From a virus, in UHGV virus genome UHGV-2113617: DNA of 64,000 nucleotides. One strand, 5' to 3'. The stretch's first letter is position 1. Each line of letters opens with the position of its first letter. The notes beneath the pieces are model-generated. The model did not search any database and had not been told where the DNA came from. It worked only from the letters and a program-made list of their open reading frames with translations. Made by a program: the position numbers and the translations under genes. This document shows positions 20,580 to 28,755 of the stretch, one piece after another.

Positions 20580-20609
20580 ATTATAACACAACACGAGGGA
20601 CTTGTAAAC
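20580..20609 (-). promoter_or_regulatory. early promoter (GTTTAC -35, 18 nt spacer, TATAAT -10)
   Basis: Minus strand GTTTAC(20604-20609)...TATAAT(20580-20585); part of a ~50 bp module repeated at 35143..35195. Confidence 0.55.
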
Positions 20610-22666
20610 TACATCTTGAACTTTTTAGACATTCCGTTGATGTTAACCAAAGAAGCCAAGATTTGAGAAACTTCGTTTTCCTCTTCTTTTGATTCTTCTA
20701 CAAGGAATTGGTTAAATCCAGTCATTGGACGAACTTCACCAGTTTCCATTAGATGGTCGCCATCATATACCGATTCTTCTAATTGTTCAGAAGGAGGAAC
20801 GATTGTGCCTTCGATTAGATACTTGTTATAAGCAGTTTCTTTCATCATGTACGTACTCACTTTATTAATCTTCAGCAAAATTCCACGTGGTAAAATAACT
20901 TCAGCTTCTGATGGAAATCCTGATAAATGACCTGGAACGATAACTTTAATTCGCTCAGCCCCTTTAATTACCATACCTACGCTAGTTTCAGCATCTTCAT
21001 TCGCATAAGCAGAGTGACTGCCCATATGCATCAAATCTTCTGCGTCAACTGAACCTTCTCCTTCACCAGAAAATACTGCACCGGAATCATCTAGAGCCAT
21101 ATAGTTTTTACCATACTCACCGAAGATATTTGGTTTAAGCGATGTAGATACGAAGTTCTTGAAGTAGAACATTTTATTTTCAATATTATGACGTAAAGTT
21201 TTAAAGGTAACTTCTTGCCCACGATAAAGTGTAGTTCCTGGAGGAAGAACTGATCCTTTGGCAAAGGCAGAATCCATTGTCTCGATGTGTTTAATAGCTC
21301 GTTCCATATATTCTTCACGGGTAGAATCCGGTTTACCTAAAAGGAACGAGTTCATTTCAACATATGAATCTGCACAATAATCTTCAATTACATCAGACTC
21401 AGCCTGAGTTAATCCTTTTGGAGTTACTTCAGTACTTGCATATTCATACGCTTGAGAAGCAGACTCATTAATCAATTTATAAACGCCATTCATGACAAAT
21501 TGAACAATAGCTACCTTTTCATCTGGCGTGGCTTTAGAACCTTTAACTAAATCATTGATAATTTTCTTAATAACATCAAAGCTATTAGAAATATTAATGT
21601 CAGCAAGATCACTTAAAATTTTATCAGTTTTATAATCAAAAAATTCTTTATTCTTTAAATATTCTTGAGAACCTTGATATGTTATATCGCTCTGTAACTT
21701 GATAGATGGATCACGTAAACGTGCATGAGCCAATGCAATATGATTTCGGAAGCTTTCTAGTTCATAATCGCTAGATTTAAAACGAGAAGCGCTTCTCATA
21801 CCACCGATAGCTCCTTTGCTGAAGTTTGAACCAACCTGAATAACGCCAGAGTTCATTGGTCCTTCTGCTTTATATACCGGAACTTTAGATTCAAACTCTT
21901 GATATTTCTTAGCAGCGAAGCTATCACCCTGAAGTGAAGCATCGACAGTAGAATATTGAGCTTGTGCTGCTAATCGACGACTAATTTTAGTTTTCTGAAT
22001 AACAGCTTGATCCATACGCTTATCATTTTCTAAAGCGATAGAAGCAGCAACAGCGACAGCTTTAGGAACAGCATTACCTGTTTTAACATCTACATAAACA
22101 TCACCAACCTTTGATTCAACTTTTGTGAATAACTCAGTTGAAATAGGAGGTACACCTGGAATGTCTTCTAAATTGGCATTTTTACGGTAAACCATAATAT
22201 ATGCATATTTCTTATCATAGTCCCAGATTTCCTTTAAAAGAACATATCGACCTGCTCCTTTAGTACGCACTAAACGATCGGCAATAACTTGCATTTGACG
22301 AGCTGCACCGTTTGTTTTACTCTTTAGTACGCGGAATAAGCATGCGTCAATTTTGTACTGTTTCATTGTCTGAAGAGCAGTATCAAAAACCGCATTAATG
22401 ACACCAATTGGATTTCCACCCAAGTTTTTAAGTTTAACTAATGATAGTTTCTCATTAACACCTATCATTACGATATGCATCATTTTATCGCCTGGCTTAA
22501 CGTTTTTATTTGTATCACCGCCAGAGGTGTATGTACAAAATCTAAATCCAGGAAGCACGCTTTCTTCACCGGCTTGAATAGCAAAAATTTGAGGTATTTT
22601 ATGCTTAGGATTTAAGTTAACAACCGGCGCCGAAGCGCCGTCAAATAATTCTGTAATAAGTTCCAT
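20609..22666 (-). CDS. Alt-family ADP-ribosyltransferase paralog (downstream copy)
   Basis: 685 aa; N-terminus near-identical to upstream paralog; R-S-EXE-type motifs (YRGQ, FVSTSL, SEAEVILPRG). Confidence 0.8.
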   Translation of the reverse strand: MELITELFDGASAPVVNLNPKHKIPQIFAIQAGEESVLPGFRFCTYTSGGDTNKNVKPGDKMMHIVMIGVNEKLSLVKLKNLGGNPIGVINAVFDTALQTMKQYKIDACLFRVLKSKTNGAARQMQVIADRLVRTKGAGRYVLLKEIWDYDKKYAYIMVYRKNANLEDIPGVPPISTELFTKVESKVGDVYVDVKTGNAVPKAVAVAASIALENDKRMDQAVIQKTKISRRLAAQAQYSTVDASLQGDSFAAKKYQEFESKVPVYKAEGPMNSGVIQVGSNFSKGAIGGMRSASRFKSSDYELESFRNHIALAHARLRDPSIKLQSDITYQGSQEYLKNKEFFDYKTDKILSDLADINISNSFDVIKKIINDLVKGSKATPDEKVAIVQFVMNGVYKLINESASQAYEYASTEVTPKGLTQAESDVIEDYCADSYVEMNSFLLGKPDSTREEYMERAIKHIETMDSAFAKGSVLPPGTTLYRGQEVTFKTLRHNIENKMFYFKNFVSTSLKPNIFGEYGKNYMALDDSGAVFSGEGEGSVDAEDLMHMGSHSAYANEDAETSVGMVIKGAERIKVIVPGHLSGFPSEAEVILPRGILLKINKVSTYMMKETAYNKYLIEGTIVPPSEQLEESVYDGDHLMETGEVRPMTGFNQFLVEESKEEENEVSQILASLVNINGMSKKFKM

Positions 22667-22669
22667 GAT

Positions 22670-24766
22670 TTATCCTTGAACGAACTTGTAAGGCATGTTT
22701 GTAATATCTATGCAAGACGCAATAATTCCGAGAGATGATTCTACTTTCTGTTTAACATTTGATGAAACAAATGATGCAAAGTCAACTTTGTCTTCTATTT
22801 CAATATCATCTATCATTGCAACTACTTCACCAGTTTCCATTAGACGGTCACCGTCATAAATTACTGATTCGGTGAGTTCTTCCGTAGTCATAACTTCAGC
22901 TTGAATGAGTTTTGTATTATTAGATGTTGTTCCGTCATTATTAGAAGCATCAGTTATTTTATTAACTTTGACCATCAATCCGCGCGGTAGAATAACTTCA
23001 GCTTCTGTTGCTATTCCGAGATTTCCTGGATATACAACATTAACTTTATGAGCTCCATCAATAGCCCATCCTATTTGAACTTTAACGTATTCAGGATTTT
23101 CTTTATACGCTCTTATTTCGTTTGGATTAATAGTTATTCCTTCTTCATTTTTATCAACTGTTAATTCATTACGAGCTTCTGGTTCTAAAAGACCGATACC
23201 AGCATGTGTAATTCCAAAACGCCCAAAAATGATAGGAGTTAAAGAAGTAGATACAAAATTTCTGAAATAGAACACTTTATTTTTAACTAGCGCTTCGTAT
23301 ATAGGAGCAGTCATACTTTGAGCACGATAAACTGTAATGCCTTCTGGTATACGGTCACCATTTTCAAAAGCTGAATCTAAATTATTTATCGCAGATTCAA
23401 TTTCTTTTTCACTCATTACATCATATCGTTCTGGATTGTAGCGGCCTAAAAGAAGATTATTGATGTCAGTATATCCTGATCCACAATATTCTCTAATGCC
23501 GCGCTTTTGTGATGGAGTATATTTAGAACCATCACGGGCAATAGTAATATCAATCATTGGACCTGCACCAATTCCAGAAAAACTATAAATCATTCGTTTG
23601 AGGAATTTAGTTTTTGCTGCGTTCCAGGAATTTTTAGTTATTTCTTCCCAGACTTCATCTGGCTGCCCTTTACGAGTTTTATTATGTCTATCAAGCCAAT
23701 TATCTTTATATTCTTCAAAGAATTTATTAACAGCTGCTGCGTATTTCTCTAAACATTTTATTGAAGTAGTTGGTTCATTTTTAATCGCATTAAGAATTAC
23801 ATCTTTAATTTTTTCAGAAACTTCATTAACCTCACTTTTTGAAAAGAATTTATAGTCATAGTGAAGTTCATCTGCGGTTCCTTCAGCAATAATTTTTGCT
23901 GCCTTAGTTTTAGAAGCTAATGAATTAATTCCAAGCTTCATTTCTTCTGCTTCTGGAATTAAAGGAGCAGTAGCAGGTTTATTGAAATTAGCTGCAGTAG
24001 ATTCATACTTCTGGAATAATTCGCTTTCAAATCTAGAAGATTCTAATGATTGACTTTGCGCAATTGCTCTACGGGAAATTTTAACTTTAACGATTACAGC
24101 TTGGTCAGAACGTTTATCATTTTCTTGCGCAATAGATGCTGCAATCGCCTCATTTTTAGTTACTTGAGCTCCGGTATCTTTATTGATATAAACATCGCCG
24201 ACTTTCGATTCAACTTTAGTAAAGAGCTCGGTACTAATTTCCGGAACTCCTGGAATGTCTTCTAGTGATACATTTTTGCGATGTATAAGAATATATGCAT
24301 ACTTTTTATCATAATCCCAGAGTTCCTTAAGAAGGACGTATCTGCCACCTGAACGACTACGGATAAGTCTATCAGCAATAACTTGAATTTGTCGAGCTTG
24401 ACCGGCAGTTTTAGACTTAAGAATACGAAGCATACAAGCATCAATTTTATACTGACGCATTGTTTGCATTGCAACAGTAAAAACCGAATTGATATAATTA
24501 ATTGGGCTTGGACCAAGACCTTTCAATTTAGCAATTGAACCTTTAGCGGTTAATGTAAAAGGAACAATATGCATCATTTTATCGCCCATCTTTAAATCAC
24601 GATTAGTATCACCTCCAGATGTATAAGTACATAAACGAAAGCCTGGTTGTTCAATTGCATCATCAACATGAACTGAAAAAATTTGCGGTATTTTCTTCTT
24701 TGGATTTAAGTTTGTAATCGGAAGAGTAGTATCTTCGTCAAATAATTCTGTAATTAGTTCCATCAT
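22670..24766 (-). CDS. alt: Alt ADP-ribosyltransferase (packaged, late-expressed)
   Basis: 698 aa; ART motifs (YRAQ, FVSTSL, TEAEVILPRG); late promoter TATAAATA just upstream. Confidence 0.8.
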   Translation of the reverse strand: MMELITELFDEDTTLPITNLNPKKKIPQIFSVHVDDAIEQPGFRLCTYTSGGDTNRDLKMGDKMMHIVPFTLTAKGSIAKLKGLGPSPINYINSVFTVAMQTMRQYKIDACMLRILKSKTAGQARQIQVIADRLIRSRSGGRYVLLKELWDYDKKYAYILIHRKNVSLEDIPGVPEISTELFTKVESKVGDVYINKDTGAQVTKNEAIAASIAQENDKRSDQAVIVKVKISRRAIAQSQSLESSRFESELFQKYESTAANFNKPATAPLIPEAEEMKLGINSLASKTKAAKIIAEGTADELHYDYKFFSKSEVNEVSEKIKDVILNAIKNEPTTSIKCLEKYAAAVNKFFEEYKDNWLDRHNKTRKGQPDEVWEEITKNSWNAAKTKFLKRMIYSFSGIGAGPMIDITIARDGSKYTPSQKRGIREYCGSGYTDINNLLLGRYNPERYDVMSEKEIESAINNLDSAFENGDRIPEGITVYRAQSMTAPIYEALVKNKVFYFRNFVSTSLTPIIFGRFGITHAGIGLLEPEARNELTVDKNEEGITINPNEIRAYKENPEYVKVQIGWAIDGAHKVNVVYPGNLGIATEAEVILPRGLMVKVNKITDASNNDGTTSNNTKLIQAEVMTTEELTESVIYDGDRLMETGEVVAMIDDIEIEDKVDFASFVSSNVKQKVESSLGIIASCIDITNMPYKFVQG

Positions 24767-24816: not shown

Positions 24817-25004
24817 TAGTAATCTAGTGGTAAGAGAGTACGATATATTTCAAACTTTGGTCCTTTTTCATAGGCATCAAATGTTTCTGTAAATTTATTA
24901 TAAGCATATGCATCTACAAATTCGAGAATGACTTGTGATACAGAAGTAGAAACATCTCCACCTTCTTTTTGAGCTACGACAATTGTTTCTAAGTAAGCTT
25001 TCAT
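24816..25004 (-). CDS. hypothetical small protein
   Basis: 62 aa ORF, start overlaps ligase stop. Confidence 0.45.
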   Translation of the reverse strand: MKAYLETIVVAQKEGGDVSTSVSQVILEFVDAYAYNKFTETFDAYEKGPKFEIYRTLLPLDY

Positions 25005-26461
25005 AGATCAGTTACCTCATGAAAATCACCAAATACATCCTCGAATGTATTAGCTTTAGTTTTATCTTCACGTAAACGAATCGCAATCGGAAGAAATAAT
25101 TTAACGTAATCAGTGCGGCCATCAGATTTTAACCAACCGTTGCATTCGCACTCTAGAATTTTTCCAATATAATAATTTTGGTTTTCCATAATGCGAGTAC
25201 GGTCAAGTTCATGCGATTTTACACCGGCTTTATCTTTTAAGCCTGAACCAGCATTTACTTTAATTTTTCCACACTCTGATTCAAGAATAAATCCACCTGC
25301 TTTAGTAGGGTCTTTACGGTGAGGATAAATTCCTACAATTTTTAAATCAACATCAATTACTTCTTTAAATTTATAAAGATTTTTTGAACGAGCATTTTCC
25401 CACAATCCATCGGTATTTTTGAGAATAATACCTTCAAGACCTTGGTCAATATATTTTTTATAAATTACCTTAGCTTCATCTAGGTTATTTACTACTTGGT
25501 TTTCAATTAAAATTACTTTATCATATCCTGATGTCATTTGTTCTAGTTTAGAAAAACGTACATCATATTTTAAACGAAACGCCGGAAGACCGTATATTTC
25601 TACCAACGGAACATAATCCCAGACCTGAAACTTCATACATTGGGCTTCTTTTTCTGAAATAGTTCCCTTTAAAGATTTATTAGCGATTCCATTAGAAGCA
25701 GTACGAGATTCAGCTACTTCGGCAAACTCTTTAGCTTTACTGATTTCAGAAGCATCAAAAAGAAAATCTAGGCCTTCTGGTTCCTTTTTAACTTGCTCAT
25801 GGTATACCAATTCGCCATCGATTAACACGCCTTCTGGATGAATCTGGCGGGCTTCAGCAGTCATTTTGATTAACTCTTCCTTAAGAAGATCTAATCCTAG
25901 GTATTCATTGCCAGCTCGCGATAAAAGACGAACATCATCTAATTCATCACCTCGGACTTCAGCAAAACACCGAGCTCCATCTGCTTTTAACTGCGCAAAA
26001 GCTGGAAATTTGATATTCTTACTAATGCCTTTTTCATCATAAGAACTTGCAAGCATTTGAGGTTGTTCAGGAATTAAACCTGGCCAAACTTTGTTTGCAA
26101 TAGATACTGAAGCACCGCATTCAAGGTCTCGCATCATAACTCGACGTAGTACTTCAACATCATCCTTTTTACCATCGGTGATATATCCAGTTAATTCCTC
26201 AATTGCTGCATTTCCAGTCAATTTCCGAGTAGCTAACGTAAATTCAATAAAGTCAAGCATATCGGTAATGGTCAGCATTCCAAAACTCTGGGTAGCAATA
26301 CCAGGTTTAGGCCATTTCTTGATATAATACTGTAACCCACGAGAATAAGTCAGACGATATACTCGTTTAAGCAATTCATTATCTTTATTCTTTTCAAGAA
26401 TTGCTTGCTTCTGCTTAGTTGATCCAATAGATGCTATTTCATTCAGAATTTTAAGAATCAT
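25001..26461 (-). CDS. 30: ATP-dependent DNA ligase gp30
   Basis: 486 aa; adenylation motif KADGARC; length and position as T4 ligase. Confidence 0.9.
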   Translation of the reverse strand: MILKILNEIASIGSTKQKQAILEKNKDNELLKRVYRLTYSRGLQYYIKKWPKPGIATQSFGMLTITDMLDFIEFTLATRKLTGNAAIEELTGYITDGKKDDVEVLRRVMMRDLECGASVSIANKVWPGLIPEQPQMLASSYDEKGISKNIKFPAFAQLKADGARCFAEVRGDELDDVRLLSRAGNEYLGLDLLKEELIKMTAEARQIHPEGVLIDGELVYHEQVKKEPEGLDFLFDASEISKAKEFAEVAESRTASNGIANKSLKGTISEKEAQCMKFQVWDYVPLVEIYGLPAFRLKYDVRFSKLEQMTSGYDKVILIENQVVNNLDEAKVIYKKYIDQGLEGIILKNTDGLWENARSKNLYKFKEVIDVDLKIVGIYPHRKDPTKAGGFILESECGKIKVNAGSGLKDKAGVKSHELDRTRIMENQNYYIGKILECECNGWLKSDGRTDYVKLFLPIAIRLREDKTKANTFEDVFGDFHEVTDL

Positions 26462-26727
26462 TGTTCATCCTTCAGAGTTTGATTTACATTTCTATTATAA
26501 ATCAATTCATCATTAAGCTCAGGCAAAGACTTATGATATGTAGTTCTAACTTTATTTCCTTGCATCCAGTGCTTGACGTAAATGAAACCTTGCTCTACAC
26601 ATTTTTTAAAAATTCGTTCATCCTTTTGAGCACGGAACTCTGGATTACATCTAAAAAATTGATTTACGTGACCGTAATCACGTGTAGTATTACCTTCATT
26701 TTCATAAATAGTGTGAACAACAAACAT
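26458..26727 (-). CDS. hypothetical protein (30.1-like)
   Basis: 89 aa ORF translationally coupled to neighbours. Confidence 0.5.
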   Translation of the reverse strand: MFVVHTIYENEGNTTRDYGHVNQFFRCNPEFRAQKDERIFKKCVEQGFIYVKHWMQGNKVRTTYHKSLPELNDELIYNRNVNQTLKDEQ

Positions 26728-27590
26728 TAGAATGCTCCTTGGAAAATATTATCACCACTAGTAAGTCTATTAAAATACCCTGCGTCGCCAGGCTTAGTAT
26801 AACTCCACGTATGGAATGGATTCATATGATACGGGTGTGTATAATATGGATTATATGGATGCGTATAATATGGATTATAAGGATTAAATCCAGGAGTTCT
26901 CCAGGTTGTATTCCAACGAAAAGAATCGTTTTTAACCATCTTCTCAATCACATCTTTTATAGCTTTTTCACTATCAAAACTTTCTTTATTTTCCTTCGGT
27001 GAAAAAAGCTTATTTTCTACATCATTCCATGTATAAACTCGCTGAGCAGTTTTTGGAATATTATCACGCTCCCCTCGAGCCATCCAATAAACAGGAACAT
27101 TTAATATTTCACTCGCATGATCGCAGTGATGAGCGAGATCGTCAATATAACAAATTACGTTATATTTCTCTTTTGCCTTTTTGAACAGCTCTTCTTTTGA
27201 AGAATCATGACCACACATCATTACTTCTGAGAAGGCACTAGGAAAAAGAGCATTCAAATTAAACTGACGATTCAACAGAGCGTCAATAGAATCACCCAAT
27301 GCTGTAACAGCTACAAAATTATAATCTTCTTTTAATTTGTTAATTACACACAGGGCATCTTTATACGGAGACAAGTAACGAATAAAATCTGAACGATTGT
27401 ATTTTTCAATTAACTTGACGCCAAGTTCTTCATCACAATTAAAGAGTTTACCTGGAGAAATAAATTTCTCATCTTGGATCATTTTTAAAATATGTTCTAA
27501 CGGAAGATTATATTTCTGAGCAAAATAAGGAAGGCCTGATTGCCAGCTTAAACATACTCCATCAATATCAGTTAAAATAGTAGGCTTCAT
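26727..27590 (-). CDS. HAD-superfamily phosphatase (5'-nucleotidase-like) with C-terminal Tyr/Pro-rich repeat
   Basis: 287 aa; N-terminal DIDGV motif typical of HAD/5'(3')-deoxyribonucleotidase; C-terminal YNPYYTHPYNPYYTHPY. Confidence 0.6.
   Translation of the reverse strand: MKPTILTDIDGVCLSWQSGLPYFAQKYNLPLEHILKMIQDEKFISPGKLFNCDEELGVKLIEKYNRSDFIRYLSPYKDALCVINKLKEDYNFVAVTALGDSIDALLNRQFNLNALFPSAFSEVMMCGHDSSKEELFKKAKEKYNVICYIDDLAHHCDHASEILNVPVYWMARGERDNIPKTAQRVYTWNDVENKLFSPKENKESFDSEKAIKDVIEKMVKNDSFRWNTTWRTPGFNPYNPYYTHPYNPYYTHPYHMNPFHTWSYTKPGDAGYFNRLTSGDNIFQGAF
26834..26885 (-). repeat. short tandem repeat (~24 nt x2) encoding YNPYYTHP
   Basis: gtataatatggattata... repeated in the DNA. Confidence 0.6.
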
Positions 27591-28045
27591 AGAGAGTCTC
27601 TTAATAGGTTTAACACATCAATAAATTCAGCTTCGGTTAGTATTGTATCATCTTTTGTTAGACCACTAGCCATGCTGTGCTTCAAAACTTTTCCTTTCGA
27701 GGCTTGTAATGCATCACGAAAGCCCTTGTTTTGGATTGCTGCTTCAAAATATGCATTTGTGTATAATTCTTTCCACGCTGGAGAGTATCTTGAAAACGGA
27801 ACTCCAAGCCAGAAGAGGGTTCCACGGTCCTGAGCTCTTGCATAAGCTCGTCCAGCTTGTTGGGCGGAAAGCCCGGATAACCCAAATATACGACGTTGTT
27901 GTTCAACATTTTTCACCTTACACCCTTGGAGAAATCCTTCGAGACCTCCAAATTGGATACCATCCATAACGAAAGGCCATTGGGCGAAATTGCTTAATGC
28001 GCATGATGGCCATCTAAAATTGCTTCTAATCTCTAACTCAGACAT
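27587..28045 (-). CDS. NADAR (YbiA/DUF1768)-like protein
   Basis: 152 aa; segment LSNFAQWPFVMDGIQFGGLEGFLQGCK resembles the YbiA core FSNFAAWPIKVDGKTWPTSEHYFQAQKF. Confidence 0.55.
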   Translation of the reverse strand: MSELEIRSNFRWPSCALSNFAQWPFVMDGIQFGGLEGFLQGCKVKNVEQQRRIFGLSGLSAQQAGRAYARAQDRGTLFWLGVPFSRYSPAWKELYTNAYFEAAIQNKGFRDALQASKGKVLKHSMASGLTKDDTILTEAEFIDVLNLLRDSL

Positions 28046-28049
28046 TTTA

Positions 28050-28337
28050 TTAAAATCTCATCTGAAACCCGTGTGATTTAACATTACCGCCGCCAATATC
28101 AGAAATGTTAATTTCACGCGCAATTGAAGGGTCAATGTCAATTTCACGATTGAGTTTAGTGATAGCTAAAGTATCACGGCCATTTACAGTACGGAACTCT
28201 AAAGGGCAGACTACATTAACGTAGTTTTTAATCGATTCACTGGTAGGCTGCAAATGAGCAGGAAGGTCTTTAGGCGCCTTAGAGAAAACCACTTCACAGA
28301 AATTTTTACGGGTATCAAAATAAGTAGTCATAAACAT
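28050..28337 (-). CDS. hypothetical protein
   Basis: 95 aa ORF with SD GAGGA upstream. Confidence 0.5.
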   Translation of the reverse strand: MFMTTYFDTRKNFCEVVFSKAPKDLPAHLQPTSESIKNYVNVVCPLEFRTVNGRDTLAITKLNREIDIDPSIAREINISDIGGGNVKSHGFQMRF

Positions 28338-28353: not shown

Positions 28354-28380
28354 AGGGGCCGAAGCCCCTATTTTATTTTA
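28354..28380 (+). terminator. GC hairpin with T-run on the plus strand inside a minus-strand gene cluster
   Basis: AGGGGC-CGAA-GCCCCT followed by ATTTTATTTTA on plus strand; on minus strand the same hairpin is followed by an RBS, not a U-run. Confidence 0.4.
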
Positions 28381-28755
28381 AATATCAAATTCGTTAAGAA
28401 CTACATCAAAGATTGCTTCAAGATGCTCAGGTTTAGCTCTGTTACTCAGAATATGACGAATCCAAGTTTTAACCAGAAGCTTGCGATTAACGCCATTCCA
28501 GCAAGGATGAGTACCTAAATCGCGTTGACGGAAATCATCATCTAATGCGATTTTAAAAGAAGAACCTTCTTTCGTGATTGAAACCGTGATGCCATTTTCA
28601 AATCGCATATAAACGTAGTTAGGAGTCATATACTGTTCAATTTCGCATACTGATCCATTTTGATGTTTCCAAAGGCAAATAGTATCAATAGAACCTGCAA
28701 TACCGTTAGAAACATATTTACGTTCAAAGTTGATGTAGTTCATTTTATTCTCCAA
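28378..28755 (-). CDS. hypothetical protein
   Basis: 125 aa ORF. Confidence 0.55.
   Translation of the reverse strand: MENKMNYINFERKYVSNGIAGSIDTICLWKHQNGSVCEIEQYMTPNYVYMRFENGITVSITKEGSSFKIALDDDFRQRDLGTHPCWNGVNRKLLVKTWIRHILSNRAKPEHLEAIFDVVLNEFDI

Follow-up and report, generated by a model that had tools for sequence, protein, structure and literature searches.

The open reading frame (ORF) at 27587..28045 on the minus strand of the window, the whole 64,000-nt stretch of Tequatrovirus (T4-like) DNA analysed here, is an ortholog of T4 gene 30.3, now adfN, and most probably (at about 93%) encodes a small NADAR-fold enzyme of a single domain that frees guanine of ADP-ribose, letting the phage replicate despite the DarTG1 defence system. 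The window allele has the gene identity, the fold and the conserved catalytic residues of T4 gp30.3 together with an intact C-terminus. The enzymatic role of gp30.3 and its action against DarTG1 were already published in 2024-2025, and nothing reported here is new beyond those papers.

Phage crosses located the DarTG1 resistance of T2 and T4 in gene 30.3 (Johannesman et al., Nat Commun 2025, PMC11825919; preprint PMC11257639), and the gene was renamed adfN, for anti-DarT factor NADAR (PMC11825919). For T-even phages to overcome DarTG1, T4 AdfN, a guanine-specific DNA ADP-ribosylglycohydrolase, is both necessary and sufficient, as shown with the T4 and T2 alleles (PMC11825919).

Locus and gene order

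The 2.4-kb stretch round the ORF matches 738 phage records with a top identity of 97%. Comparison with the T4 reference record places the ORF in a run of minus-strand genes comprising DNA ligase (gene 30, 25001..26461), gene 30.1 (26458..26727), gene 30.2 (287 aa, 26727..27590), the ORF itself, gene 30.6 (28050..28337) and gene 30.7 (28378..28755). The order and strand of ligase, 30.1, 30.2 and 30.3 are identical in the window, T4, JS98, PhAPEC2, AV109, PSD2002 and MLF4, and since the gene order agrees with the T4 reference record, the ORF is gene 30.3. On the other side of the ligase gene lie two tandem, full-length Alt-type ADP-ribosyltransferase genes on the same strand, both matching PF03496 (685 aa, 20609..22666; 698 aa, 22670..24766), with alt.1, also on the minus strand, between them and gene 30 in the listed order. 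The Alt paralogs, spanning 20609..24766, are 3-5 kb away, a few genes from the ORF as was originally described. In T4 there is one alt gene, and alt.-1 and alt.-2 are short leftovers of an ancient duplication.

T4 genes 30.4 and 30.5 are absent from the window, where a clean 390-bp gap has its junction at 28046-28052. Consequently, gene 30.6 abuts gene 30.3, and its stop codon is followed 4 nt downstream by the start of adfN. One or both of the missing genes are retained in most relatives, and Salmonella phage Manna (PP987310.1) has the same 30.6/30.3 junction as the window, in one piece. A scan for promoters and terminators returned generic consensus matches only (18 found versus 12.5 expected), none of them specific to 30.3. 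The sole clear stem-loop of the scan, the GC-rich AGGGGCCGAAGCCCCT followed by a T-run at 28354-28369, occupies the interval separating 30.7 from 30.6 and, read on the coding (minus) strand, immediately precedes the 30.6 start. This element is conserved in T4 and may serve in RNA stability or as a terminator.

At the downstream end of adfN, the start of gene 30.2 overlaps the adfN stop by four nucleotides (ATGA), and the two genes are translationally coupled. Tequatrovirus, Mosigvirus and Dhakavirus all retain this overlap. The product gp30.2 carries a HAD-phosphatase motif I (TDIDGV) and weakly matches a PHROG for polynucleotide kinase, while its sequence matched nothing in Pfam, in NCBIfam or, at E<=1, in PDB. 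Compared to T4, its C-terminal Pro/Tyr/His-rich tail contains an extra 10-residue repeat (YTHPYNPY...).

Reading frame and selection

The ORF runs from an ATG to a stop codon over 152 codons, and its product is identical to T4 gp30.3 at 149 of 152 residues (98%). All three differences are conservative, with S, A and M at positions 60, 67 and 125 of the window protein versus A, S and I in T4. The dN/dS of adfN is 0.04-0.11 against six Tevenvirinae alleles, ratios that show strong purifying selection.

The gp30.3 proteins of the Mosigvirus phages AV109 and PhAPEC2 are annotated in GenBank as 126 aa, starting at an internal Met. In both sequences the full 152-codon frame (301-759), which also encodes the N-terminal strand and the SNF motif, is open and conserved, and the annotated starts are probably wrong.

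Inside adfN a 75-aa ORF in another frame (27682-27909, minus strand) corresponds to gene 30.3' as annotated in T4. This frame is open in the window, T4 and MLF4, interrupted by stops in JS98, AV109 and PhAPEC2, and without its ATG in PSD2002. Within the overlap, adfN shows no drop in synonymous divergence (dS), nor is there any synonymous-site constraint. A conserved second gene was therefore rejected, as the frame is broken in relatives and dS is not reduced, and 30.3' is probably not a real gene.

Assignment to the NADAR superfamily

In Pfam, gp30.3 is kept as a family of its own, PF08010 (Phage_30_3), separate from the NADAR/DUF1768 family PF08719. The window protein matches PF08010 at E=7.5e-70 (233.6 bits, gathering cut-off 36) across profile positions 1-138 of 138. 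It also matches phrog_652 (E=4.5e-51), for which the PHROGs label is 'unknown function'. Searches with the single sequence gave no PF08719 match at E<=1 and no match in NCBIfam or PADLOC. Phmmer against PDB returned no NADAR structure, the lone match (3rjz, E=0.98) being noise. The NADAR assignment thus rests on profile and structure evidence. The original prediction had called for an HMM search against NADAR and had named the lack of a significant match as evidence against itself; taken literally, that is what the single-sequence Pfam scan gives, because the protein is filed under PF08010, and the relationship emerges at the level of family profiles and structure.

Altogether 107 homologs were gathered, 63 of which are full-length and were aligned, down to 34% identity. 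Searched against PDB, the profile of these 63 homologs finds E. coli YbiA (2b3w) at E=0.0057 across the catalytic motif, and hhalign of the family alignment against YbiA gives a probability of 92.6% (E=4.6e-7). Eight of the 63 family members match PF08719 individually (best E=1.5e-7), and several metagenomic members were named 'YbiA (DUF1768 family)' by JGI. Three metagenomic members (P0028, P0033 and P0034) are 201 aa long. The AF2 model of the window protein (pLDDT 93.3, pTM 0.88) has the NADAR fold. Sequence-profile, structure-prediction and fold-search tests agree and support the membership of the window protein in the NADAR superfamily.

Catalytic residues and the C-terminal helix

The 152-aa ORF and its motif are present as originally described. 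The core NADAR motif comprises residues 17-43 (LSNFAQWPFVMDGIQFGGLEGFLQGCK; 27917..27997, minus strand) and aligns column for column with FSNFAAWPIKVDGKTWPTSEHYFQAQK of YbiA. The YbiA motif quoted in the original prediction is found verbatim in the PDB 2b3w alignment and in the translation of E. coli K-12 ybiA. Glu36 (codon 27938-27940) and Lys43 (codon 27917-27919), both encoded on the minus strand, are the catalytic residues of this motif. They lie in an E-x-[FY]-x-Q-x-x-K helix and are aligned to the Glu and Lys of the YbiA motif SEHYFQAQK. E36 is invariant in the 63 homologs, and K43 is conserved in at least 90% of them. The profile and structure tests agree in showing the catalytic residues kept. 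In T4 AdfN, the E36A and K43A substitutions impair the protein, yet partial activity is kept in vivo (PMC11825919).

The third residue of the putative pocket, His123 (27677..27679, minus strand), is located within the last predicted beta-strand (residues 120-123) and is likewise invariant in the 63 homologs. Members of the phage (gp30.3) clade have His as the charged residue at this place, those of the YbiA family Glu and those of the BC4488/DarG1 family Asp (PMC11125620). This bears on whether gp30.3 could instead be a YbiA-type metabolic N-glycosidase acting on intermediates of the riboflavin pathway or on other small ribosylated compounds, the kind of role that the E. coli K-12 annotation assigns to YbiA. 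The residue is His where the YbiA family has Glu, the published phylogeny puts phage NADARs nearest to the DarG1-like clade, and the T4 protein, 98% identical, has been shown to act on DNA and to confer a counter-defence phenotype. Such a metabolic role is consequently very improbable.

The C-terminal alpha-helix (residues 138-151; 27593..27634, minus strand) is predicted at high confidence and is intact in the window protein, which does not differ from T4 over residues 126-152. A frameshift truncates AdfN by 15 C-terminal residues in the DarTG1-sensitive phage RB69 (PMC11825919), against which the published strength of the DarTG1 defence is about 5 logs. Truncating T4 AdfN in the same way impairs its activity, and the C-terminal helix is needed for full activity (PMC11825919). 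Inactive natural alleles are thus known, and several database entries are short at the N- or C-terminus (P0004-P0007 and P0013), so that one may ask whether the window carries a decayed adfN without function, as RB69 does. Against this stand the full-length 152-aa frame, in which none of the conserved residues is missing and the C-terminal helix is present, and the dN/dS of approximately 0.05 versus T4. That the allele is a relic of this kind is highly improbable.

Activity during infection

ADP-ribose is taken off DarT1-modified DNA in vitro by T4 AdfN (PMC11825919), which answers positively the de-ADP-ribosylation assay that had been suggested for the window protein. The phage NADAR hydrolyses guanosine-ADPr and not thymidine-ADPr (Toxins 2024, PMC11125620). 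In the same study, the construct named 'E. coli T4 phage NADAR (gp30.3)' is given as spanning residues 1-208, versus 152 aa in the T4 record (PMC11125620). Plating on DarTG1 hosts, another of the suggested assays, is rescued by T4 AdfN (PMC11825919), and no interaction between T4 AdfN and DarT1 was detected by two-hybrid analysis (PMC11825919).

For the T4 ortholog, the published work shows the following course of events. In an infected cell with DarTG1, the DarT1 toxin ADP-ribosylates guanine bases in phage DNA and blocks replication. AdfN hydrolyses the N-glycosidic bond that joins ADP-ribose to guanine, probably by means of an E36/K43/H123 pocket, so that the base is restored and replication proceeds. 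The protein acts as an 'orphan antitoxin', a mimic of DarG1-like type IV antitoxins that leaves the toxin itself unbound. The window allele, with its three conservative substitutions, is expected by analogy to behave like the 98%-identical T4 protein, and its phage would then resist DarTG1 during infection. The original proposal of a NADAR (YbiA-like) enzyme for DarT counter-defence is in this way borne out by the profile and structure tests together with the 98% identity to T4 AdfN (PMC11825919).

Expression of the phage NADAR, which had been expected to relieve DarT toxicity, did not rescue uninfected E. coli from DarT1 (PMC11125620). Full activity of AdfN is confined to T-even infection, non-T-even phages are barely helped by it, and DNA hypermodification was excluded as the reason for this restriction (PMC11825919). 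As there is no rescue outside infection and little help to non-T-even phages, a 'free-standing glycohydrolase' is not the whole story. One proposal would be that AdfN needs a phage-encoded partner, for which the HAD-motif-containing, phosphatase-like gp30.2 is a candidate, the two forming a two-step repair module for ADP-ribosylated DNA. However, no gp30.2 relative was found beside the distant gp30.3 homologs P0044 and P0088, which belong to two unrelated contig families (adjacent ORFs, BLASTP E>=0.4). This argues against an obligatory AdfN-gp30.2 pair, and we regard the proposal as unlikely. The P0044 contig family, which includes one contig of 308 kb that is probably genome-scale or from a jumbo phage, has NUDIX and Thg1-like genes approximately 2.6-5.3 kb downstream of the gp30.3 homolog. 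Speculatively, a NUDIX protein encoded near a NADAR could process the freed ADP-ribose.

The original prediction also offered the alternative that gp30.3 modulates the phage's own ADP-ribosyltransferases (ARTs). It would then edit modifications made on host proteins or RNA by the Alt paralogs, ModA or ModB, rather than those of a host toxin. Two full-length Alt-type ARTs (PF03496) 3-5 kb away and full activity during T-even infection only are what such a role would lead one to expect. However, what has been published is activity towards guanine-ADP-ribose in DNA and a DarTG1-specific phenotype, whereas the target of Alt is established to be arginine in proteins, as is also annotated in the T4 record. 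In T4 the distance from Alt to 30.3 spans unrelated genes (ligase, 30.1 and 30.2), and in the contigs of the distant gp30.3 homologs no ART gene occurs in the 5 kb that were read to each side. Editing of Alt/Mod modifications, in favour of which there is proximity alone, has found no support and is quite improbable. Removal of toxin-derived ADP-ribose from guanine in phage DNA is the preferred reading of gp30.3.

Comparison with known systems

The closest counterpart of the window protein is T4 gp30.3/AdfN (PF08010), which it resembles in length, in E36, K43 and H123, and in its position next to 30.2, followed by 30.1 and the ligase gene. The loci differ upstream, where T4 has 30.4 and 30.5 as neighbours.

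The DarG1-type NADAR of Geobacter lovleyi (PDB 8bat) has 219 residues versus 152 in the window protein, shares 14% identity with it and has Asp in the last strand where the window protein has His. In uninfected cells, DarG1 cannot be replaced by AdfN. The neighbours gp30.2, gp30.6, gp30.7 and gp30.1 gave no DarT match by Pfam or PHROG. With no adjacent DarT gene, adfN would act like DarG1 but is an orphan rather than a member of a toxin-antitoxin system.

E. coli YbiA (PF08719; PDB 2b3w) is approximately 21% identical to the window protein and has Glu versus His in the last strand. In contrast to adfN, it is encoded in a LexA-controlled host operon and has no role in countering DarT1.

AdfA (T4 gp61.2) and AdfB serve the same purpose as AdfN, i.e., escape from DarTG defence. 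They are, however, non-enzymatic binders of DarT toxins without a known fold family, whereas AdfN is an enzyme acting on modified DNA.

Implications

The assignment, which had otherwise been established through phage crosses and biochemistry, was also arrived at by a reading of the sequence alone. In hundreds of database records the product of gene 30.3 is a 'hypothetical protein', and these entries could be renamed AdfN. The phage from which the window derives should be predicted to be DarTG1-resistant.
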